From positions 6,620-70,619 of the forward strand of contig JAFLRX010000008.1 of the NCBI GenBank assembly GCA_022511265.1: 64,000 nt of DNA, given 5' to 3'. Source of the DNA: Eubacterium sp. (GTDB taxonomy: Bacteria; Bacillota; Clostridia; Oscillospirales; Ruminococcaceae). Below, piece by piece: positions 6,385 through 61,346 of the stretch (position 1 is its first letter; each line of letters begins with the position of its first letter). A model generated the notes under the pieces. That model did not search any database, had not been told where the DNA came from, and saw only the letters and a program-made list of their open reading frames with translations. A program made the translations under genes and the position numbers.

Positions 6385-9123
6385 ATGGAACTTGATAAGA
6401 TACTCAAGGATTATGTCGCCTCGATAGAGATACCGCCGCAGGCGATGCCTGACGCGATAAAGAGCATGATCCTGCAAGACTCCGAAATGACCGCGGGTAC
6501 TTTTTTGAAGAGTCTCAGACAGCTGAAGATCTCCGGCTCGGAATTTCTCGAACTGCTGGGCAATTCAAAGATAGGCAACGCCGAATACCGCCGTATAGAG
6601 GAAAACCCGCATCTTAAATTTGACGAGCTGTTAACTATATTGGATCACTCGGTGCTTAGCAGCGAGGATTATCGTGTGCTGCTCGCGGCCGCGACCCACC
6701 GCCGCAACCTGAGAGAAGAACGCCGCCGCCGCGAGGAAGAGACGCTGGCGCGCATCGAGCGCGAGCTGGAGCAGGAAAAGCTGGCAGCACAGACTCCCGT
6801 TTCGGAAGAACCCCCTGCGCAGCAGCCCGTTGAGGAAATCTCAGAGGAAGTAACCGAAGAAACTGCTGAAGAATTAACAGAAGAGGTTGCGGAAGAAACT
6901 GCTGAAGAAGCAGCTGAAGAAAACACCGAAGAAATCGCAGAAGAAACCTCTGAAGAAATTACTGAAGAAGCAGCGGAAGAAATCGCTGAAGAAGTAGCTG
7001 AAGAAACCGCTGAAGAATTAGCAGAAGAAACCGTTGAAGAATCAGCTGAAGAAGCTCCCGAAGAAATTACAGAAGAAACCGTTGAAGTAACAGACACAGA
7101 AGTTATCGAAGAAACCGCCGTAGAAACAGTTGCAGAAATTGAGGAAGAAACCGCAAACACCGTTGCGGAGGTTGCTGAAAACACAACCGAAAAAGCTGTT
7201 GAAGAAACATCCGAGCAGCCCGCCGCGGCAGCACCGACACAGGACGAGCATACCGAACAGCCTGATAATAAGCCGGATAATGATAAATATGACGATGAAT
7301 ATGACGATGATGAATACGACGACGAATACGAAGAAGAAGATTACGACAGCGTAGAGTACGAAGAAGATGATTACGATGACGAATACGAAGATGACGATGA
7401 CGATTGGGATTACGAGATATACGAAAACGATGAATACGAGGACTATTCCGCCGAGACGTTAGGCAACGCCCTTGAAGAGCTGGTGGACGAGGACGGCAAC
7501 CCCCTGCCCTCCCGCCGCTCAAAGCCCGCACTTATCACGGCGTTTGTGCTGGCGGCGGTGGTCATTCTCTGCGGCGCGACCTATAAGCTGCTGCGATATT
7601 ATGAGATAATACCCAGTTACACCTACGCTATCCCCGAGACCTTTTCACAGCAGATAGGCAGCTACGCCGAGCTTGCGGACAGCGTGCAAAGCGCCCGCAG
7701 CCTGATAAGCTACACTCTGCCGAACACAATAAAATTACAGAACAGCAGCTTTAACCCCGAAAGCCTTTCGGCGATAGGGCATAGATATGTTATTCATGTC
7801 GGCGAGACGGAAAACGGCAAAAAAATAATAAACGGCTTTGGAATTAATGACGACGGCACGGCAGGCGACAAATTTTCCGCCGATGTGTTTGATACCGAGC
7901 CGAAACGGTTGTATGTATATTCCGCATCCGTCGGAGAGACAGGATATTTTATCCTTGCCGCCGAGACGGACGGTCAGACTTTAATAAAGATATATGAGGA
8001 AGAGGCGCTCAGCAAGAACGAACAGCCTGCCGCGGACTTTGCGCAGTCGGGCGGCTATGCGGGTTATTCGATAGGCGCGGACGGATTTTATTCGGTAAGC
8101 TATGTCAGCATGAGTCTGGACACCGCCAACGCCGAAAAGCCCGAAACCTTTGTACCGGGTATAACCGCAGACGGACGCTCGCGGGCGGTATCGTGGGGCG
8201 ACATAATACTGCCGTACGCGGCGGCGCGCTTTAACTATTACGTCATAGTCCGCCTGCCGCTGGGCAATGACGCCGACCCGACCGTTAAGGCTGTCGGCGT
8301 AGGCGACGCAAACGGCTATGCGATAGGCGCGGACGGTTTTTACTGTGCGGACTACACCGCGATAAACAGCGCGTCTCACTCGCGCATAACAAAGATAGCG
8401 TTTGACCCGGCACTTACACATAAAGATACCGACATAGACGGCGCGATAAACGTCTCGATGCTGCTGGCGGGAGACAGCAAGATAGCCGTACCGGGTGTTG
8501 ACGGCGATTCTTCGTCTAATCTCTACACCTTCTCCACCGAGCTTTCCGAACCGTCGGTGATGGACGGCATAGCGCAGGACAAGATAATATCCGGAGCATA
8601 CTGCACCGGCAATGTCATCACCCTGATAACCGACGGCGACGCGCCCATGCAGTACAACATAGACCTTACTACTATGGAGAACGCGGATCTGCCGCCCGCA
8701 TACAAGAGTTTATCGGATACGCTTTCGGCTGCTTTGACCGCCGACGGCAACAAAGCCGTACTGCACATATACGATAACGGCGAAGAACAGACCTCTGCCG
8801 ACATCACTGCGGAGGGCAGCTCCGGCTGGCGCTCTCCCGCAACAACCGACGCGGCGCAGCTGGCGGTATTGCAAAAAGGAAACGACACACTTATCGGTCT
8901 GCCGGTGATATATTTTGACGGAGTGACCGATGTATATAAATACATGCTGTACAGCTATTCAGGCGGCAAGCTGACCGAAAAAGGCTCTATTATACTTATG
9001 GAGGGCAGCTATCGTGAGATATCCTCACGCATTGTCGGAGATTTTGTGATAACCGCATGGGATAACCGCATAATAGTTGCCGATACCGATAATGTAAAGA
9101 TAATCTCTGATACAGAGTTCTAA
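6385..9123 (+). CDS. large single-pass membrane protein: N-terminal helical domain, long acidic linker, TM helix, extracellular beta-propeller-like domain
   Basis: TM ALITAFVLAAVVILCGATY at ~7528-7590; beta-rich C-terminal region ending LIGLPV..YMLYSY..GKLTEKG..RIVGDFVITAWDNRI, reminiscent of clostridial beta-propeller domain proteins. Confidence 0.6.
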   Translation: MELDKILKDYVASIEIPPQAMPDAIKSMILQDSEMTAGTFLKSLRQLKISGSEFLELLGNSKIGNAEYRRIEENPHLKFDELLTILDHSVLSSEDYRVLLAAATHRRNLREERRRREEETLARIERELEQEKLAAQTPVSEEPPAQQPVEEISEEVTEETAEELTEEVAEETAEEAAEENTEEIAEETSEEITEEAAEEIAEEVAEETAEELAEETVEESAEEAPEEITEETVEVTDTEVIEETAVETVAEIEEETANTVAEVAENTTEKAVEETSEQPAAAAPTQDEHTEQPDNKPDNDKYDDEYDDDEYDDEYEEEDYDSVEYEEDDYDDEYEDDDDDWDYEIYENDEYEDYSAETLGNALEELVDEDGNPLPSRRSKPALITAFVLAAVVILCGATYKLLRYYEIIPSYTYAIPETFSQQIGSYAELADSVQSARSLISYTLPNTIKLQNSSFNPESLSAIGHRYVIHVGETENGKKIINGFGINDDGTAGDKFSADVFDTEPKRLYVYSASVGETGYFILAAETDGQTLIKIYEEEALSKNEQPAADFAQSGGYAGYSIGADGFYSVSYVSMSLDTANAEKPETFVPGITADGRSRAVSWGDIILPYAAARFNYYVIVRLPLGNDADPTVKAVGVGDANGYAIGADGFYCADYTAINSASHSRITKIAFDPALTHKDTDIDGAINVSMLLAGDSKIAVPGVDGDSSSNLYTFSTELSEPSVMDGIAQDKIISGAYCTGNVITLITDGDAPMQYNIDLTTMENADLPPAYKSLSDTLSAALTADGNKAVLHIYDNGEEQTSADITAEGSSGWRSPATTDAAQLAVLQKGNDTLIGLPVIYFDGVTDVYKYMLYSYSGGKLTEKGSIILMEGSYREISSRIVGDFVITAWDNRIIVADTDNVKIISDTEF
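6832..7083 (+). repeat. intragenic 12-bp degenerate tandem repeat, 21 x EExx
   Basis: EEIS EEVT EETA EELT ... EEIT EETV, almost all Glu codons GAA. Confidence 0.9.
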
Positions 9124-18905: not shown

Positions 18906-19377
18906 TACACTTATCCTCAGCGATGATGATAAAAGATTTATAATTACCGCGCGCGAGCTGCTGGAGGACGACAGGGTGATGCTTATGCAGCACTTTACCC
19001 AACACGGCAACGTCTCCTGCTACGAGCATTGTCTTATGGTCGCGCTGTACAGTTATCTTTTCGCAAAGCATCTGAAGATAAAGATAAATGTCGAGGCGTT
19101 GGTACGGGGCGCGCTGCTACATGATTTCTTCCTGTACGACTGGCACGACACTGCGTTCACCCCTGACGGGCTGCACGGCTTTTCCCACCCCTACACCGCA
19201 CTGAAAAACGCCTGCCGTTTCTTTAATCTGACCGAGCGTGAAAAGAACATAATCTTCTGCCATATGTGGCCGCTTACTCCGCTCCAGATACCCGCCTATC
19301 CCGAGGCATGGCTGGTCTGCATGGCGGATAAATACTGCTCGCTGAAAGAAACGCTGTTCAAAGACCCGTATAAATAA
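18898..19377 (+). CDS. HD-domain phosphohydrolase
   Basis: QHGNVSCYEHC, LVRGALLHDFFLYDWH, HGFSHP, IIFCHMWPL, VCMADKYCS. Confidence 0.85.
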   Translation: MNNTLILSDDDKRFIITARELLEDDRVMLMQHFTQHGNVSCYEHCLMVALYSYLFAKHLKIKINVEALVRGALLHDFFLYDWHDTAFTPDGLHGFSHPYTALKNACRFFNLTEREKNIIFCHMWPLTPLQIPAYPEAWLVCMADKYCSLKETLFKDPYK

Positions 19378-19384
19378 TGTAATT

Positions 19385-19544
19385 ATTGAGGGAGACCTTT
19401 TGAGAAAGGGTCTCCCTCTAACTCTCTCCCGAAATCTTTTTAATATTATCCCACTGACGGGGTTTACCCCGTCAGTGGGATAATTAAAAGTCTTTGGAAA
19501 GGGGTACGGGGAAAACCTTTCCTCAGAAAGGTTTCCCCCGATAA
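19385..19544. repeat. composite three-hairpin intergenic element, copy 1 (REPIN/MITE-like)
   Basis: ATTGAGGGAG...CCCCGATAA ends and internal blocks shared with 55851-56015; 18-bp perfect central stem 19445-19484. Confidence 0.85.
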
Positions 19545-19548
19545 TTTA

Positions 19549-19755
19549 TCAGAATGTCATAGATTTGTCGGGTAGGATGCATGCCATGACGATATACGCG
19601 ATAAGCGCGGGAATAAACGCAAAAGAAACGCCAAGCAGCACGGCTATCAGCCGTATTATGTTAGGGTCAAGATTAAGGTACTCTCCGATACCGCCGCACA
19701 CCCCGCAGAACACCCTTCCCTGCTCTATCTTATATAGCTTTTTGGGCATGGTCAA
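19549..19755 (-). CDS. PspC domain protein
   Basis: KKLYKIEQGRVFCGVCGGIGEYLNLDPNIIRL...YIVMACILP. Confidence 0.9.
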   Translation of the reverse strand: MTMPKKLYKIEQGRVFCGVCGGIGEYLNLDPNIIRLIAVLLGVSFAFIPALIAYIVMACILPDKSMTF

Positions 19756-33008: not shown

Positions 33009-34970
33009 TTATTTAATTTCAGCTTTTACTCCGGGTACAGAATTCAGCTTGCCTTTGCCCTTACACGTCCAGCATTTGCCGTCGCCGTGGCAGCCCTGGC
33101 AGGTGACATTTGCCCATTTGCCGCTGCCGCCGCATACTGTGCAGCGTCCCGTGCCGCCGCAGGTATGGCAGAACGCCACCTCGCTGCCGGTGAACGGGGT
33201 CAGGTATACCGAGAACAGACCTTCCCACTTGCTGTAATAATCGCCGTACCAGGTCGATATATACGGTGTCTCCAGTCTGAAATAGAATAAGCTGGGGGTT
33301 TTGCCGGTATAATCCACGTACTGCGCCCTCATATAACACTCTTTAAAGTATTGGGGGTGGGAGGTGGTATTGTAGGTCTGCTGTCCGTTGCCGTGCCATA
33401 TACCTACAAGGTCTGCTGTGATGATAGGAGCGTACGCGCCCAACGGGCTGGTCTCACTGCCGGTGGCGATGCCGCCTGCGGCAAAGCCGAATCTGAGATA
33501 ATCGCGCTTGTTCAGCCATACCTTTATCTCATCGGTCCAGTGGATAGAGTCGTCTCTTATATCCGTCACATAATATCTTCTATAGGTAACGTCAAAGTTA
33601 ATGCCGTCAGCACCCGTCGCAAACTCTCCTGTACCCTGATATTCGGTGCTTGCCTTGCCCGGATCAGGTGTCCTGAAGTAGGACGCGCCGTGCCAGCCTT
33701 CCTTTGCGGTGGGGTCTTTTAGTGTAGACAAAGTAATGGTGGCAGAGCCGCCCTTCACCTTGGTGCTGCCCTGCATTATATAGGGCGTGATGCGGAATTG
33801 CGCAGTCGTACCTGAAGGCATATTGATGGTCAGCGGGGGCTTGGTCACTACCACTGTCGAAGAGGTAAGCATTACCCACTTGCCGTTATAATATTCCTCA
33901 ACATCATAGCCGGAGACAGTGGAATTATGGTTCCATGTAATGGTCACACCGTCATAAGATACATCCGTGGCCTTCAGCCCGGTAACCGCCGCGGGGGTGG
34001 TACACCATGTGTTGCTTGCTAATATGCTGTACAATGCAGTGCTGCCGGACATCTTATATGCCTGGATGCGGAAGCTGTACTCAGTGCCGGGCTTCAGTCC
34101 ACCGACACGGTACTCAGTGGTAGAATTATTGGTTATCTTGACAACGCGTTGCCATGCGGTGCCGACCTTTTGCTCGATTATATATCCGTCGGCAGAGGTG
34201 TTCTTGTTCCAGCCCAGACGCAATGCGTCGGTCGCCCTGCCCTTTAAGGTAAAGCCCTGTACCCCGTTGGGGGATGTGCGCCAGCTGCCGTTGGTATAAC
34301 CGCTGTACAACGCGGTGCTGCCAGACATCTTATACGCCCTTATGCGGAAGTTGTAGGCGGTGCCCGCCGCAAGCCCTGTCACCTTATATTCGGTGGTAGC
34401 GTTGTTGGTTATCTTGGTGATGCGCTGCCATGTTGAGCCAACCTTTTTCTCAATAATATATCCGTCGGCAGAGGTGTTCTTCGCCCAACTGAGAGTAAGA
34501 TAATTATTCGACCTCAATTTAAGGGCAAAACTCTTCATCGCGCTGGGATAAGTGCGCCAGCTGCCGCTGGAATAGCTGCTGTACAGCGCGGTACTGCCGG
34601 ACATCTTATATGCCTTGACACGGAAACTATATGCCGTACCCGCCTTTAGTCCCGCAATGCGGTACTCTGTGGTGGCATTGCTTGTTATCTTTGCGATACG
34701 CTTCCAGGTGGTGCCGTCCTTCTGCTCGACGATATATCCGTCGGCGGAGGTGTTCTTGTTCCACGCGATACGCAGTGCGTCAGCGGCGCGCCCCTTAAGA
34801 TAAAGTCCTGTTATCTTAGAGGGTGCCGACGCGGATTTTTCCTGCGAAAGCACTTCTTCCTGCGCCTGCTGCAATGCGCTGCCCTGATAAATGTTCTGTA
34901 CCGCGGCGCATGACGTGAACAGCATAACTGCTGCCATCAGCAGGGAGATAAGCGATAATCTTTTTTTCAT
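33009..34970 (-). CDS. lipoprotein with four fibronectin type III repeats and a C-terminal DnaJ-type Zn finger
   Basis: Lipobox FTSC; W..NTSADGY..E...W...GL..GT.Y.FR..AY repeats; four CxxCxGxG motifs at the C-terminus. Confidence 0.85.
   Translation of the reverse strand: MKKRLSLISLLMAAVMLFTSCAAVQNIYQGSALQQAQEEVLSQEKSASAPSKITGLYLKGRAADALRIAWNKNTSADGYIVEQKDGTTWKRIAKITSNATTEYRIAGLKAGTAYSFRVKAYKMSGSTALYSSYSSGSWRTYPSAMKSFALKLRSNNYLTLSWAKNTSADGYIIEKKVGSTWQRITKITNNATTEYKVTGLAAGTAYNFRIRAYKMSGSTALYSGYTNGSWRTSPNGVQGFTLKGRATDALRLGWNKNTSADGYIIEQKVGTAWQRVVKITNNSTTEYRVGGLKPGTEYSFRIQAYKMSGSTALYSILASNTWCTTPAAVTGLKATDVSYDGVTITWNHNSTVSGYDVEEYYNGKWVMLTSSTVVVTKPPLTINMPSGTTAQFRITPYIMQGSTKVKGGSATITLSTLKDPTAKEGWHGASYFRTPDPGKASTEYQGTGEFATGADGINFDVTYRRYYVTDIRDDSIHWTDEIKVWLNKRDYLRFGFAAGGIATGSETSPLGAYAPIITADLVGIWHGNGQQTYNTTSHPQYFKECYMRAQYVDYTGKTPSLFYFRLETPYISTWYGDYYSKWEGLFSVYLTPFTGSEVAFCHTCGGTGRCTVCGGSGKWANVTCQGCHGDGKCWTCKGKGKLNSVPGVKAEIK
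33990..34815 (-). repeat. intragenic 276-bp tandem repeat (Fn3 units)
   Basis: GGC(A/G)GAGGTGTTCTT anchor at 34191, 34467 and 34743 (period 276 nt = 92 aa). Confidence 0.9.
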
Positions 34971-54199: not shown

Positions 54200-55813
54200 A
54201 TGATAACTGTTTCGGATTTAGCGATAAATTTCGGCGGGCAGACGCTTTTTAAGGACGTCAACCTGATATTCAACGCAGGCAACTGCTACGGCGTTATCGG
54301 CGCGAACGGCGCGGGCAAATCCACATTCCTGAAAATACTGTGCGGCGAGCTTGACCCCGCGGCAGGCAGCGTAAACATACCCGAGGGGCTGCGTATGTCG
54401 GTGTTAAAGCAGGACCACTTTGCCTATGACGAATACACCGTGCAGGAGACGGTGATAATGGGCAACGCGAGGCTATACGAGATAATGAAGGAAAAGGACG
54501 AGCTGTATGCCAAGGAGGATTTCTCTGAGGAGGACGGCGAGAGAGCCAGCGTGCTGGAGGGCGAGTTTGCCGAGCTCGGCGGCTGGGAGGCGGAAAGCGA
54601 CGCGTCCAAGCTGATACAGGGACTGGGACTGGACGAGGAAATTATGTATTCTCAGATGTCAAGCCTTGCCGGCAACGAAAAGGTGAAGGTGCTGCTGGCG
54701 CAGGCACTGTTCGGAAATCCTGATATTATCCTGATGGACGAGCCTACCAACCACCTTGACATCGACGCGGTGGCGTGGCTGGAGGATTTCCTTGCCGAGT
54801 ATTTCGGCACGGTGATAGTGGTATCCCACGACCGTCATTTTCTCAACAACGTATGTACCCACACAGTGGATATAGATTACGGCAAGATAAAGATGTATGT
54901 CGGCAACTACGAGTTCTGGTACGAATCCTCTCAGCTTATCCAGCGCATGTTAAAGCAGCAGAACAAGAAGGCCGAGGAAAAGATAAAAGAGCTGGAGACC
55001 TTTATCCAGCGGTTCTCCGCCAACAAGTCAAAGTCAAAGCAGGCGACCTCACGCAAAAAGCTGATAGAAAAGCTGACGGTGGAAGAGCTGCCCGCGTCCA
55101 GCCGCCGCTATCCGTTCATCAGCTTTGAGGCGGACCGCGAGATAGGCAAGGATATACTGACGGTGGACGGACTGACCAAGACCGTTGACGGCGTAAAGGT
55201 GCTGGACAACGTCAGCTTTACCGTCGGCAGGGGCGACAAGATAGCCTTTGTAGGCGAAAACGAGATAGCGGTCACCACGCTGTTTAAGATACTCAATGAG
55301 GAAGAGCAGCCGGACTCCGGCAGCTTTAAGTGGGGCAGCACCGCCAGCGTAAGCTATTTTCCGCAAGACAACACCGCGTTTTTTGAAAACTGCGACAAGT
55401 CTATAATAGACTGGATACGCCAGTACTCCAAGGATGAGACTGAGACCTACCTGCGTGGATTTTTGGGCAGAATGCTGTTCTCCGGCGACGAAGTATACAA
55501 GCCGGTCAAGGTACTGTCAGGCGGCGAGAAAGTGCGCTGCATGTTCTCGCGCATGATGCTGTTCGGCTCTAACGTGCTGATACTTGACCGCCCCACCAAC
55601 CATCTCGACCTTGAGAGCATCACCGCCGTAAACAACGGACTGCGCGACTTTAAGGGCAATATCCTGTTTGCCTCGCACGACCGCGAGATAGTACAGACCT
55701 CCGCCAACCGCATAATAGAGCTTGCCGAGGTAGGCTGCTATGACAGGCAGGGCACCTATGAGGAATATATCGAGTGGAGAAAACAAGCCCACGGCGGCAA
55801 ATTTACGTTATAA
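54200..55813 (+). CDS. ABC-F family ATPase (YkpA/YbiT-like)
   Basis: GANGAGKST, DEPTNHLD, VSHDRHFL, LSGGEKVR; two NBDs with linker, no TM. Confidence 0.93.
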   Translation: MITVSDLAINFGGQTLFKDVNLIFNAGNCYGVIGANGAGKSTFLKILCGELDPAAGSVNIPEGLRMSVLKQDHFAYDEYTVQETVIMGNARLYEIMKEKDELYAKEDFSEEDGERASVLEGEFAELGGWEAESDASKLIQGLGLDEEIMYSQMSSLAGNEKVKVLLAQALFGNPDIILMDEPTNHLDIDAVAWLEDFLAEYFGTVIVVSHDRHFLNNVCTHTVDIDYGKIKMYVGNYEFWYESSQLIQRMLKQQNKKAEEKIKELETFIQRFSANKSKSKQATSRKKLIEKLTVEELPASSRRYPFISFEADREIGKDILTVDGLTKTVDGVKVLDNVSFTVGRGDKIAFVGENEIAVTTLFKILNEEEQPDSGSFKWGSTASVSYFPQDNTAFFENCDKSIIDWIRQYSKDETETYLRGFLGRMLFSGDEVYKPVKVLSGGEKVRCMFSRMMLFGSNVLILDRPTNHLDLESITAVNNGLRDFKGNILFASHDREIVQTSANRIIELAEVGCYDRQGTYEEYIEWRKQAHGGKFTL

Positions 55814-55818
55814 TAAAG

Positions 55819-56045
55819 CCCGCCGCTGATATGAAAGCTATATGTCTATCATTGAGGGAGCCCCTTTTGTAAAAGGGTCTCCCTCATACTCCCTCCCGAA
55901 AACTTTTTAACATTTTCTTTCCGATGGGGCATATGCCCCATCGGAAAGAAAATACTGAAAGTCTTTGGGAAGGGGTACGGGGAAAACCTTTCTACAGAAA
56001 GGTTTTCCCCGATAAAACAGTATTTGTTTTCATATCAGCGGCGGG
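55819..56045. repeat. 18-bp perfect inverted repeat bracketing element copy 2
   Basis: CCCGCCGCTGATATGAAA (55819-55836) / TTTCATATCAGCGGCGGG (56028-56045), with outer A- and T-runs. Confidence 0.85.
55851..56015. repeat. composite three-hairpin intergenic element, copy 2 (REPIN/MITE-like)
   Basis: Same ends and blocks as 19385-19544; 42-bp perfect central palindrome 55912-55953. Confidence 0.85.
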
Positions 56046-56051
56046 TTTTAT

Positions 56052-56396
56052 TTAATTCAACCCAAAGCTGACTGACAGGGCGTTGTCTACCCTGCTCATC
56101 GAGCCGGTGTCCAGCTCTCCCATACGCTCTTTAAGCCGCTGTTTGTCAAGCGTACGTACCTGTTCGAGCAAGACTATAGAATCCTTTGCCAGCCCGCAGC
56201 TGTCCGCGTTTATGGAAATATGGGTGGGCAGCCTGGATTTATCCTTTTGGCTGGTTATCGCGGCGGCGATGACGGTCGGGCTGTGTTTGTTGCCTATGTC
56301 GTTCTGAACTATCAGCACCGGGCGCAGCCCGCCCTGCTCGCTGCCTACTACCGGACTTAAGTCCGCATAATAAATTTCTCCTCTTTTGACAAGCAT
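56052..56396 (-). CDS. mazF: MazF/EndoA (NdoA) family endoribonuclease
   Basis: KRGEIYYADLSPVVGSEQGGLRPVLIVQND.GN, AAITS, PTHI, SIVLLEQVRTLDKQRL. Confidence 0.95.
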   Translation of the reverse strand: MLVKRGEIYYADLSPVVGSEQGGLRPVLIVQNDIGNKHSPTVIAAAITSQKDKSRLPTHISINADSCGLAKDSIVLLEQVRTLDKQRLKERMGELDTGSMSRVDNALSVSFGLN

Positions 56397-56698
56397 AATA
56401 TTATCCCTTTCGAAAATCAAGACGGCGTTTTCAAAAATATACGCCGGAATAAATGTACAATTATATTTTTAACTGTGCCGCGCGGTTTATTCAACTCGAG
56501 GAAAAAATACCCGCGTGGCGTACGTTGTCCCCGTCAGCCTGTCTGTAAGGCTATCACAGGGTCTATATAGTTTATTATCCGGCGCGGATTTTGTTGAATG
56601 AGGTCGGCTGTAATCGGCTCATACTTGACTTTATACAAAGAAAAATATATAATATAATCAAGCATTACGCTTATATAACTTTACAAAGGAAGAAGCTT

Positions 56699-58562: not shown

Positions 58563-61346
58563 TCAGTACCTTCTCAGCTTCTGCACAGCCACCATAACAG
58601 CCGCTGCCGCAAGATTGTATATTGTCAGCACGGTAGGCGTCAGCAGGAAGGTCTGCTTGAATGCCGTCATCAACAGCACCAGCACAACGCCGAGCGCCGC
58701 GCATGCCGTCATTATCGCACCGGATATCGAGAATACCCTCATCAGCGACTTTGCGGTCAGTATGCCGCGCGCGAGCGAGGTAAATGTACCTCCGCAGGAC
58801 AGCCCTCCGCTGCCGCGCGAGGTGTACTTAGTACATTCGTCATACTCCTCATGCGCGCCGTGCGGCAATATCTTTATCAGCTCGGGGTCTAACTCGAACA
58901 TATCCGCCAGCTTTTCAACGGTCACTATAGAGTCGGTGGTGCGTACGATTATTGCTACATTTTCCTTCTGCAATGCCTGTAGGCTGCTCTTTATCTCGTG
59001 GTTGGCGGTCATGCATATAATGAACATCGCCACTACTTCTCCGCCCACCGCGAGATATACTACCTCGTCACTATCCGCCGCGCAATGCTTGCGCTCGGAC
59101 TTTGTAGAGGGCAGCTCGATATGGTGGGTGGTCATCAGCGCCCTGCCGCCGAACATCACACGCCGTGTGCCTATCCAACCGGTGACGCCGCTGTTGTCCT
59201 CATAAATGCAGCCGTCCACCTTTTTCAGCAGCTCTTTATCGCCCAGCGTCACGTCATAGAACGCGTAGGACAGTATTCCGTCGGTGTGTATCGCAAGGCT
59301 TGCCGCCATTACTATTGCCTCGTCTATGTTGACGGAGGTAACGGCGTTCTTCCTCTGGCATATCTTTACGCTGCGTATTACCGCGCTGCCCGCGGGGAAC
59401 AGCGTCTTAGCGTCGGTCATAACGGTATTTACCGCGGAAAACTCGCTTGCCGCCTCATATCCCAGCAGTGCCGCGTTGTTTTTGGACAGCTGCTTTGAGG
59501 TCGCGCTTAGCGGGCGGTTTATCATCAGCATTACTGAATACGGCGCGGCTATCGTCGCCGCCGCTATACCTGCCGAAAGTGCCCAAAACAGCGGATTTTC
59601 GCTCGCAACAGAAACATCAAATTCCGCGCCGAACAGGTTGAAGTAACCAATCAGTCCCGCGATAAGACCCGCCGCCAGCGAGCCTATTACCAGCTTGCCG
59701 GACAGTCTGTCCGCCGCGTCGTCGCAATAGCTGGATTTAAGAAAATCAGTGAGAAATTCAGTCTTTCTCATTACCGCCAGCACCGGCACACGATCGGTAA
59801 GCCCCTTTGTAAACATGGACACCGACGCGTCGTTTTCCACACGCTGGGCGTAATATTTCTGACTGTCGCCGGAGATAAAGCGGAAGTTGCGCTTTGCCCG
59901 GACTATCATATATATCTTTCCTGCGGTGTTGAACATCAGTGCCACCAACGCCGCGGAAATGTAAATGAACATATGCCCTATCCGGAATGACTGCATATCC
60001 ACCAGCGCAGCCACGCCGCCAATCAGCGACAGCACCGCGGTAAACGCGCAGACCGAGTCGCAGTCAGGCTTTCCGGTTATCAGCTTCAGCATACCGTTGC
60101 TCAGCGCGGTAGAGCATACCGCAAAGCCCAGCACGCCCAGCACCAGATGGACATACAGCAGGCTCTCGACGTCCGTCATGCGATTGACGAAATTCAGCGC
60201 GTCCAGCCCCAGTGTACCGAACAGGTTAAAGTCGTTCAGCATCGCCACGATAACGCTCAGCGCGGTGATTATCACCAGCAGCGTCATCCTGACCTTCAGT
60301 CCCTTATGGCTGGCACACAGGTCAGCCCATATCTGCCCGGTGCTGTCAAAATCGTCGAACTCGTCCTCGTTATCCTGTGCGTTATCCTCTTGCTCCGTGC
60401 CGGATTCGTCCTCCAGCACAAAGTCCTTTATCTTGTGCTTTTTCTCCGCGCCCAGCTCTGCCAGCCGTTCTTCCTCCACTACGGGGTTTTCTTTCGGCAG
60501 TGCGCCGGTCGCCTCTATTATCTGCTTTTTATAATCAATGTTCAGCGGATGCGCCACCGCCGACGGCTTGTTCTTTATATTTGTCAGCGTGATCGTGCGG
60601 TGCGCCCTGATGTCGGATTTGCGCTTTTCCTCCATCGACTTGTTCAGCTTGTCGATAAGTGAGGTGTTAGGCGGCTTTTTCGCTACGTATTCCTTTACCT
60701 CTTCGCTCTCGTTTATCTTCTCCGCTATCTTGGTGGACGACGGGGGCAGCTGCTTTATCTGCTCTGCCTTGACGTCCTGCGTGTTGCCGCGGAACATATG
60801 GCTGACGTCCTCGGCGGGGAATACCTCTTCTTCCTCTGCCGACGACTCGGCAAATACCTTTTCCTTTACCTCTATCGGGTTGACAAGGTCCAGCATCGCG
60901 TCGGGGTCGCTGTTTTCTCTCTCTTTTTCCAGCAGCAGCTCGCGCTTTTGCTCTTCCTCCTGCTGCTTTCTCAGCACCTCGGTCTGAGAGGGCTCGGGCT
61001 TGGGTGCCGGTTTCGGCTCGGGCTTGGGCTCAGGCTTTGGTTCCGGCTTAGGCTCGGGCTTGGGCGGCTCGTCCTCTTCGTCGTCGACGGTGGTTATCAG
61101 CTCGCTCTCGGCGGCGGATATCGCAAACTTCTCGGTACCCGCCAGCACCGACTCTACCGCATAGCTTTTGTTTTCGGGGGCGGCAGGCTCGTCCGGATTA
61201 TCCTCACGCTTCGCCTCGATATCGTTCAGTACGTCGGTATACGACAGGTCGGGGACAGACTTCCCCGCGTCTGACGGTGTATCGGCGTCGCGGGATTTTT
61301 TCGCGTCCAGCTCCGCCAGTATATCATCTATCGAATAATCTGCCAT
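58563..61346 (-). CDS. membrane protein with acidic disordered N-terminus and degenerate P1B-type ATPase-like core
   Basis: Several TM helices; VNTVMTDAKTLFP at the DKTGT position; GRALM; VYLAVGGEVVAMF; IVRTTDS at the TGDN position. Confidence 0.7.
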   Translation of the reverse strand: MADYSIDDILAELDAKKSRDADTPSDAGKSVPDLSYTDVLNDIEAKREDNPDEPAAPENKSYAVESVLAGTEKFAISAAESELITTVDDEEDEPPKPEPKPEPKPEPKPEPKPAPKPEPSQTEVLRKQQEEEQKRELLLEKERENSDPDAMLDLVNPIEVKEKVFAESSAEEEEVFPAEDVSHMFRGNTQDVKAEQIKQLPPSSTKIAEKINESEEVKEYVAKKPPNTSLIDKLNKSMEEKRKSDIRAHRTITLTNIKNKPSAVAHPLNIDYKKQIIEATGALPKENPVVEEERLAELGAEKKHKIKDFVLEDESGTEQEDNAQDNEDEFDDFDSTGQIWADLCASHKGLKVRMTLLVIITALSVIVAMLNDFNLFGTLGLDALNFVNRMTDVESLLYVHLVLGVLGFAVCSTALSNGMLKLITGKPDCDSVCAFTAVLSLIGGVAALVDMQSFRIGHMFIYISAALVALMFNTAGKIYMIVRAKRNFRFISGDSQKYYAQRVENDASVSMFTKGLTDRVPVLAVMRKTEFLTDFLKSSYCDDAADRLSGKLVIGSLAAGLIAGLIGYFNLFGAEFDVSVASENPLFWALSAGIAAATIAAPYSVMLMINRPLSATSKQLSKNNAALLGYEAASEFSAVNTVMTDAKTLFPAGSAVIRSVKICQRKNAVTSVNIDEAIVMAASLAIHTDGILSYAFYDVTLGDKELLKKVDGCIYEDNSGVTGWIGTRRVMFGGRALMTTHHIELPSTKSERKHCAADSDEVVYLAVGGEVVAMFIICMTANHEIKSSLQALQKENVAIIVRTTDSIVTVEKLADMFELDPELIKILPHGAHEEYDECTKYTSRGSGGLSCGGTFTSLARGILTAKSLMRVFSISGAIMTACAALGVVLVLLMTAFKQTFLLTPTVLTIYNLAAAAVMVAVQKLRRY

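Follow-up and report, generated by a model that had tools for sequence, protein, structure and literature searches.

Two intergenic palindromes of a Ruminococcaceae genome as probable members of a dispersed REP- or MITE-like repeat family located in terminator-like stems at gene 3' ends

We found that two intergenic elements, copies A and B, of a Eubacterium sp. contig probably (with a likelihood that we put at roughly 60%) belong, as short forms, to a large family of non-coding palindromic repeats that is apparently unnamed, is REP/REPIN- or MITE-like and resides in the loops of terminators. Both lie in the window, i.e., the whole 64,000-nt stretch of DNA that was analyzed, to which all window positions refer. 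Across the family, the element is a dispersed, multi-copy nested palindrome at gene ends, lodged inside terminator-like stems, with bulged end hairpins that are conserved and a center that changes fast but remains paired. It is REP/MITE-like DNA rather than a new kind of gene, and we infer that it is a non-autonomous mobile element, the end hairpins of which are read in folded form by an enzyme acting in trans.

Copy A (19385-19544) and copy B (55851-56015) were both verified at their positions and are 90% identical over a 165-column alignment, with both ends in common (ATTGAGGGAG...CCCCGATAA) and with the same layout of a hairpin 1 (HP1), a long central stem and a hairpin 3 (HP3; Table 1). 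They are the only two copies recovered by a repeat search of the whole window, in which the 21-mer GGGGTACGGGGAAAACCTTTC has two exact occurrences against zero expected. Copy A folds with -90 kcal/mol (dinucleotide-shuffle mean -48; z = -10.4) and copy B with -105 kcal/mol (shuffle mean -46; z = -14.1), with 0 of 200 shuffles being as stable in either case. The minus strands fold as well (-89.3 kcal/mol for copy A and -104 for copy B), and the structure is therefore not strand-specific. RNAalifold returns 59 pairs for the alignment of the two copies, and 6 of the 18 central-stem pairs differ on both sides, all of them still being paired. An earlier note on this DNA, made from the sequence alone, had described two look-alike three-hairpin copies with common ends, a fully compensated divergence of the central stem and a location of both copies between convergent 3' ends; the alignment, the folds and the flanking genes bear it out on each of these points. 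Its size of about 160 bp with three hairpins corresponds to a real core, but the full unit is larger and includes outer arms and a terminator-like stem. The convergent neighbors are genes for an HD-domain protein and PspC at copy A, which starts 8 nt past the HD-gene stop codon (19375-19377) and ends 4 nt short of the PspC stop codon (19549-19551, minus strand), and genes for an ABC-F ATPase and a MazF toxin at copy B. The window belongs to an 872-kb metagenome contig (ENA ERZ27293306), and by the source names of its ABC-F homologs the organism is a relative of Ruminococcus/Oscillospiraceae. A second assembly of the same species from another sample displays an identical copy A, with its contig stopping inside the conserved 3' module. 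No tRNA or tmRNA was found in the window.

Table 1. Parts of the two palindromic elements and their positions in the window.
Feature	Position	Strand	Details	Basis
Copy A, core element	19385..19544	no strand	short form	alignment, folds
Copy A, hairpin 1	19388..19418		GAGGGAGACCTTT / AAAGGGTCTCCCTC, one bulged base	fold
Copy A, L-arm	19421..19441		ACTCTCTCCCGAAATCTTTTT, pairs with R-arm	fold, alignment
Copy A, variable central stem-loop	19445..19484		18-19 perfect pairs, loop TTTA	
Copy A, R-arm	19486..19505		AAAAGTCTTTGGAAAGGGGT, in the most conserved module of the family	
Copy A, hairpin 3	19507..19540		CGGGGAAAACCTTTC / GAAAGGTTTCCCCCG, inverted relative of hairpin 1	
Copy B, A-tract and 5' arm of locus-specific GC-rich outer stem	55815..55825		AAAGCCCGCCG, predicted left side of a hairpin that resembles a bidirectional terminator	
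Copy B, left outer arm	55826..55850		diverged form of the family outer arm	
Copy B, core element	55851..56015			alignment, folds
Copy B, hairpin 1	55854-55885			
Copy B, L-arm	55888-55908			
Copy B, central stem-loop	55912-55953			
Copy B, R-arm	55957-55976			
Copy B, hairpin 3	55978-56011			
Copy B, right outer arm	56016..56038		pairs with 55826-55850	
Copy B, 3' arm of GC-rich outer stem and T-tract	56039..56053		CGGCGGGTTTTATTT, overlaps the MazF stop codon (56052-56054, minus strand)	

The palindrome of copy B runs outward over 55815-56053 and fills the whole intergenic space. Its flanks (55815-55850 and 56016-56053) pair with each other, the left one presenting, from outside inwards, an A-tract, GCCCGCCG and a diverged outer arm, and the right one mirroring it and ending in CGGCGGG and a T-tract; the 251-nt stretch that holds this palindrome (55808-56058) adopts a four-way fold of -151 kcal/mol (z = -20.9). 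Outer pairing is weak in copy A. A scan of the two window intergenic regions returned neither a conventional short-loop terminator nor a promoter-like site. The core hairpins are devoid of T-tracts, and a GC stem with a T-tract is found only in the outer stem of copy B, which departs from an intrinsic terminator with its short loop and direct U-tract in that its "loop" is a 213-nt element (55826-56038). This split stem with its T-tract is the only terminator-like feature of the ABC-F/MazF gap, and the HD/PspC gap has, from one stop codon to the other, no strong structure besides copy A. In relatives of the window organism, the same genes are followed by ordinary short terminators. The gene adjoining copy B (56052-56420) codes for a MazF/PemK-type toxin, and the gene content from the ABC-F gene to the downstream ABC/FtsX two-component cluster is unlike that of the closest relative (L010), which makes this a variable spot.

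The window also contains repeats of other kinds inside open reading frames. Within the ORF at 6385-9120, the segment 6800-7440 consists of long 12- and 15-nt periodic repeats (GAAGAAGCAGCTGAA... and GAATACGACGAT...) that encode an acidic, low-complexity stretch rich in Glu, Asp and Tyr. The ORF at 33009-34967 features a 276-nt unit in three tandem copies (34000-34796; 68-74% identical), which probably encode repeated protein domains, and a 12-nt periodic repeat (GGGCTCGGGCTT-like) is present four times at 60990-61061 inside the minus-strand ORF at 58563-61346.

The 21-mer of the window copies has no exact match in the species-representative genomes and one, by chance, in the JGI metagenomes, and by these counts this version of the motif is private to the window lineage. 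Matches of a 17-mer in viral contigs were rejected as chance matches inside P-loop coding sequence, and a second pattern across the center, TCCCGAAANCTTTT...AGTCTTTG, has no viral match. A covariance model of copies A and B retrieved a third, more diverged copy from a relative (GCA_965343185.1, L013:12579-12741), which lies between convergent genes and again has a different central stem. From these three copies we derived the pattern GTCTTTGNNAAGGGGN{15,25}GAAAGGTTT, for which fewer than one chance match is calculated because it specifies 22 bases, and which matches at least 119 loci in the species-representative genomes; the search of relatives with a model and the count of copies that the earlier note had proposed as a check thus returned a family and not a private pair. 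The matches listed are mostly from Ruminococcus/Oscillospiraceae, including many rumen and gut MAGs, and the hosts include R. flavefaciens FD-1, YL228, Y1, YAD2003, MA2007 and R. albus KH2T6. A GC-richer variant is found in MAGs of Desulfovibrio/Desulfovibrionales, Thermodesulfobacteriota and Planctomycetota. Single genomes can carry many copies: the MAG JAZUGG01 has at least 12, at unrelated loci, the isolate YRD2003 has at least five among the matches listed, and the model search found second copies inside single 8-kb blocks. The pattern also matches five phage contigs, in which the elements are true relatives and lie between late genes (in the terminase/portal gap, in the tail sheath/tube gap and 3' of a major head gene); the GenBank phage and PLSDB plasmid collections contain no match to the element. 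Metagenome and metatranscriptome contigs break at the conserved modules, with a word depth there of 50-500 times the flanking value. As the pattern used to collect the family lies within the module formed by the R-arm and HP3, the conservation of these two parts is partly by construction; that of HP1 and the L-arm is not affected by the collecting pattern.

Some of the GC-rich variants occur in arrays. In a Desulfovibrio sp. MAG, three head-to-tail copies with a 208-nt period (L058:5111-5740; GCCTTCGGCGACCAAAGGGCCCGCGGCCCCTTGG...) stand directly 3' of a gene and are followed by a classical terminator, and in a second locus two copies are placed about 223 nt apart (L060:6153-6423). This arrangement resembles either a transcribed array or a cluster of the BIME type.

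Read from the outside in, the alignments display a GC-rich, locus-specific stem with A-/T-tracts, an outer arm, HP1, the L-arm and the center; these are followed on the right, from the inside out, by the R-arm, HP3 and the mirror-image outer arm and stem. The outer arms are semi-conserved over about 35 nt per side (e.g., TAACGGCGGTACTTATATAGAAACTTTATGCTTA), HP1 (consensus TTATTGAGGGAAACCCTTTTGAAAAAGGGTTCTCCCTCAA) is a stem of 14 bp that bears a single bulged C, the L-arm (ACTCCCTTCCTAAAACTTT) pairs with the R-arm (AAAGTCTTTGGAAAGGGG), and HP3 (CGGGGAAGAACCTTTCCTCAGAAAGGTTTTCCCCGATAA) has a bulged G. HP1 approximates the reverse complement of HP3: on the same strand, the 3' arm of HP1 contains the bulged C and the 5' arm of HP3 contains the bulged G. 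The element can thus be described as two half-sites of about 60 nt, HP1 with the L-arm on the left and the R-arm with HP3 on the right, each with an internal hairpin of 14-15 bp; comparison of the left half with the reverse-complemented right half gives 72-78% identity, and the two halves accordingly constitute long terminal inverted repeats. The core falls into a short class of about 165-176 nt, to which the window copies belong, and a long class of about 203-224 nt, the loop of which is bigger, and overall spans 133-224 bp, or up to about 350 bp with the outer arms. The order HP1, L-arm, center, R-arm and HP3 is also retained in the copies from other phyla. Within one genome, copies differ by 0% in the L-arm, 6% in HP1, 1.5% in the R-arm and HP3, 14.8% in the center and about 53% in the outer arms; the center hence changes fast, yet it stays paired.

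Several derivatives depart from this plan. A subset of elements (L057, L072 and L127; also L030, L042, L099, L101, L102 and L131) has, in the 3' arm of HP1, a 56-nt insertion that consists of two further hairpins (TGTCACAGGGTGACA and CTCCCCACCCCGTGGGGAG) and may represent another small element lodged inside the main one. Two elements of one MAG that has ten other copies (L057 and L080) precisely lack the central stem-loop (…TTTTGGGTGTTT|ATAATACT…), the rest being intact, a loss that is typical of palindrome excision. Solo right halves, made up of an R-arm and HP3 that lie more than 400 nt from any HP1 or L-arm, are found at L017:7016-7080, just upstream of a divergently transcribed gene, and at L029:1223-1270. 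At L054:6990-7183, 170-172 nt are skipped in several contigs from metagenomes and transcriptomes, in which the 5' part of HP1 directly abuts the 3' part of HP3; single-hairpin derivatives elsewhere in these communities may give such joints. In a prophage (L018:395-700), the 5' strand of the closing stem (TGCCTCCGGCGGC) has two possible partners, namely GCCGTCGGAG right after HP3 and, with perfect pairing, GCCGCCGGAGGCA, which follows at a distance of about 30 nt and immediately precedes the ribosome-binding site of the tail tube gene.

Genes were called on both sides of 52 elements, of which 21 have a convergent, 27 a tandem and four a divergent context, such that at least one gene 3' end adjoins 48 of them; the orientation in the tandem contexts is unbiased (15 versus 12). 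The element therefore sits at gene 3' ends, irrespective of its orientation. The palindrome is extended outward by the flanks in 50 of 54 cases, the median extension being 50 nt for an element with its own flanks versus 0 nt with the flanks of different elements. The outermost parts commonly comprise an A-tract and a GC-rich arm on one side and the partner arm and a T-tract on the other. As far as can be judged from sequence, this looks like the signature of a bidirectional intrinsic terminator, with the unit in what would be its loop. The outer stems might have co-evolved with the element instead of being pre-existing terminators. Some of the long-form loops themselves carry a hairpin followed by a T-run, the orientation of which relative to the flanking genes is given by few cases.

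The compensatory change of the central stem is the rule across the family. In 84 central stems, 16-34 bp long and very diverse, we counted 1729 Watson-Crick pairs against 10 oppositions of G·T, 14 of A·C and 10 of other types; that is, 98% are Watson-Crick pairs, G·T (0.6%) is no commoner than A·C, and 62 of the 84 stems are perfect. Across 26 short forms, 96.8% of the cells are paired and 20 of 60 pairs have changed on both sides, which is matched by none of 500 shuffles; the signal collapses on sliding the partners by 1-3 columns. Covariation is seen in 12 of the 14 pairs of the central helix. Such covariation is strong enough to consider that the element is a functional RNA, i.e., a 3'-UTR or terminator module, an mRNA stabilizer, an RNase III target or an sRNA, which was duplicated and in which selection on the RNA fold generated the paired changes. 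The prevalence of adjoining gene 3' ends (48 of 52) is compatible with such a role, as are the hairpin and T-run of some long-form loops, a U·G pair that is kept in 25 of 26 sequences in the L/R-arm helix, and the three tandem copies of the Desulfovibrio variant, which precede a terminator like a transcribed array. The conserved modules are also present in metatranscriptome contigs, but these lack strand information and may contain DNA.

Nevertheless, we consider an RNA function unlikely to explain the family. G·U pairs are normally tolerated in RNA helices under selection, unlike in the central stems, where they are as scarce as A·C. Neither strand is preferred, as both fold equally in 61 elements by folding energy (mean difference +2.6 ± 6 kcal/mol) and by G·U count (277 versus 357), and the orientation relative to the upstream gene is random (15 versus 12). 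The window copies are without a promoter-like site, and the element has no match to an Rfam family. Further, the long-form loops are found in both orientations (flip/flop) relative to an asymmetric frame within one genome: in YRD2003, the loop of L092 is the exact reverse complement (100%) of those of L077 and L118, and the same inversion separates L030 from L069 in YL228 and L047 from L101 in RUG11186. Together, the strand symmetry, the random orientation, the absence of a G·T excess and the flip/flop loops favor a palindrome maintained at the DNA level over a strand-specific RNA. The inversion between the stem arms demonstrates a DNA-level interaction of these arms, which would by inference also copy a change from one arm to the other, and loops in both orientations with identical arms are expected if one arm is copied from the other. 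Loop inversion could equally be the outcome of ordinary recombination between the 20-26-bp inverted arms, and perfect pairing could arise from selection for folding on both strands alone, without templated correction. The earlier note had invoked either selection on structure or arm-to-arm templated repair for the compensated stems; both fit the family, with the flip/flop loops and the lack of a G·T excess lending some support to repair.

The same note had characterized the two copies as a REPIN/MITE-like mobile repeat. Dispersal in multiple copies holds for the family, but transposition did not emerge from the comparisons, which provided no clean empty site and no separable target duplication. 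Relatives without the element also differ in gene order at the site: those with a 96% or 87-88% identical ABC-F protein or a 73-75% identical DUF4097 protein are devoid of the element and have a different neighbor gene. For two loci of FD-1, the metagenome and transcriptome contigs have no joint that skips the element. The termini read (T/A)TAAC...GTTA(A/T), or TA, and since a TA/TTAA duplication is itself palindromic, a target-site duplication is inseparable from the inverted repeat. A 400-aa gene shared by three Ruminococcus MAGs (94-96% identical) in a neighborhood of putative polyamine biosynthesis (carboxynorspermidine) offers a locus that is useful for dating gain and loss of the element, which is upstream of this gene in two of the MAGs (231- and 167-nt forms) and downstream in the third (L113:5735-5965, L123:2630-2796 and L117:2793-2998). 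A general link of the family to polyamine genes (L046, L113, L117 and L123) was rejected, as these partly represent this orthologous locus.

As to the mobilizing enzyme, the earlier note had pointed to a HUH/RAYT-like or IS200/IS605 transposase acting in trans. This gained no backing from the gene neighborhoods, as no transposase or Pfam family is enriched among the 145 neighboring ORFs (best 25 of 193 matched families). Likewise, the listed families include no Y1/HUH gene, neither for these ORFs nor for the 50 ORFs of the window, the first 25 families of which are ordinary chromosomal ones, and the 119 loci listed, of up to 8 kb, contain neither a recurrent ORF cluster adjoining the elements nor an autonomous IS with the same ends. 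A REPIN mobilized by a RAYT, or a PATE derived from IS200/IS605, where a Y1/HUH transposase cuts and joins single-stranded hairpins, would account for the extragenic, multi-copy distribution with compensated stems, for the two inverted half-sites, as in a REPIN, and for end hairpins that are conserved, imperfect and endowed with a bulged base, as expected if recognized in hairpin form. Beyond the lack of Y1/HUH genes and of a recurrent ORF cluster in the listed neighborhoods, the element is far larger (165-350 bp) than REPs and lacks their conserved GTAG-type 5' tetranucleotide, its end hairpins are mutually inverted, unlike the LE and RE of IS200/IS605, and RAYTs are described mainly from Proteobacteria; this leaves either origin improbable. 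A domesticated DNA site, namely a cruciform-forming platform for a host protein with spread by recombination or transposition being secondary, is more improbable still as the primary explanation: the symmetry on both strands, the high conservation of the L-arm and HP1 within a genome and the retention of the layout in other phyla agree with it, and BIMEs do bind gyrase and IHF, but the varied positions in phage late operons and the many subfamilies look more like selfish spread. Such a role is compatible with the family being a mobile repeat. In agreement with the earlier note, which recognized no named family, the window and 10 family loci yielded no match at the gathering or E-value thresholds of Rfam (release 15), the sub-threshold matches being to generic long-hairpin (miRNA-precursor) models, and literature searches by sequence strings, by Ruminococcus with MITE or REP and by terminator with mobile element returned no paper describing the family.

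Returning to the reading of a non-autonomous mobile palindrome, we posit that a putative structure-recognizing enzyme acting in trans would copy the element into new terminator hairpins, reading the conserved bulged hairpins either in single-stranded form or in a cruciform. The element would enter, or survive only in, terminator loops; as the insert folds tightly on either strand, it would bring the split terminator arms together and thereby be tolerated or even be useful, potentially serving as the 3'-end structure for both flanking genes. Compensated divergence would be generated at the DNA level, with each stem arm serving as template for the other, by intramolecular template switching or by recombination of the inverted arms, such that a change in one arm is either erased or copied to the other. 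Additionally or instead, a requirement for the hairpin on both strands would mean that even G·T is not tolerated. A bolder version, which we advance only tentatively, has the element homing to terminator loops by means of a putative structure-specific enzyme that is common to several phyla. In this version, new copies would be made specifically in the single-stranded loops exposed when terminator hairpins extrude, the flip/flop loops would be a consequence of arms kept identical by hairpin-templated copying, and a one-way terminator in an invertible long-form loop could toggle read-through between the neighboring genes as a reversible switch.

Ruminococcus species are key fiber degraders of the rumen and gut, and a repeat that occupies many gene ends in these bacteria, occurs in their phages and breaks short-read assemblies at its conserved modules could be used to mark phage-host links. 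If homing to terminator loops proves true, the family would be a clean natural example of mobile DNA hidden in an essential signal that is left intact. The scarcity of wobble pairs and the flip/flop loops also make it a testable case for arm-to-arm copying versus slow compensatory selection. For annotation, both window intergenic regions are to be treated as repeat elements and not as candidate sRNA genes.

Among known systems, the element probably works most like REPINs/BIMEs and bacterial MITEs. Like the REP/REPIN/BIME elements of Proteobacteria, it is extragenic and multi-copy and is placed at gene 3' ends and between convergent genes, and like a REPIN it has two inverted half-sites that fold as a hairpin, compensated stem changes and no internal transposase. 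It differs from REPs in its size (165-350 bp versus 20-40 bp per REP), in its branched fold with two side hairpins and a central stem, in half-sites of about 60 nt with no GTAG-type motif in the alignments and no RAYT found near the elements, in being nested in a locus-specific terminator-like stem, and in its hosts, which are Clostridia and phages. With MITEs such as Correia/NEMIS of Neisseria, RUP and BOX of the pneumococcus, and ERIC (100-300 bp, with terminal inverted repeats and no ORF), it shares the defining traits of being small, non-coding, multi-copy and bounded by terminal inverted repeats, as well as dispersed intergenic sites, co-transcription with neighbors, presence in phages, and subfamilies with internal deletions or insertions. 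In contrast to MITEs, no parent IS with matching ends was found in the listed loci, a TA/TTAA duplication is indistinguishable from the palindrome, the hypervariable central stem is nonetheless 98% Watson-Crick, and placement in terminator loops is systematic. The PATEs of IS200/IS605 have left and right subterminal hairpins in the same orientation on the top strand and are strand-specific, whereas the end hairpins of the element are mutually inverted and the element is symmetric on both strands. Precedents for homing to hairpin-forming intergenic palindromes or terminators with little harm are provided by IS1397 and ISKpn1, which insert into REP loops, and by class C group II introns, which insert next to terminator hairpins; these are autonomous and encode their own enzyme, in contrast to the non-coding element between two stem arms. 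The flip/flop termini of parvoviruses and the quasi-palindrome correction of E. coli likewise combine loops in both orientations with identical arms; this likeness is an analogy of mechanism only, as hairpin-primed replication is without evidence in the element. Integron attC sites, which are recognized as folded single strands and recombine in a strand-specific manner, are comparable as imperfect palindromes with conserved ends, a variable paired center and extrahelical bases, but the element is symmetric, has no R''/R' core sites (RYYYAAC ... GTTRRRY) in the alignments, no cassette arrays and no integrase nearby, and its neighbors are diverse housekeeping genes. What sets the element apart from the families known to us is its systematic placement within terminator stems, together with loops in flip/flop orientation, a central stem that is hypervariable but wobble-free, and a layout shared across phyla.
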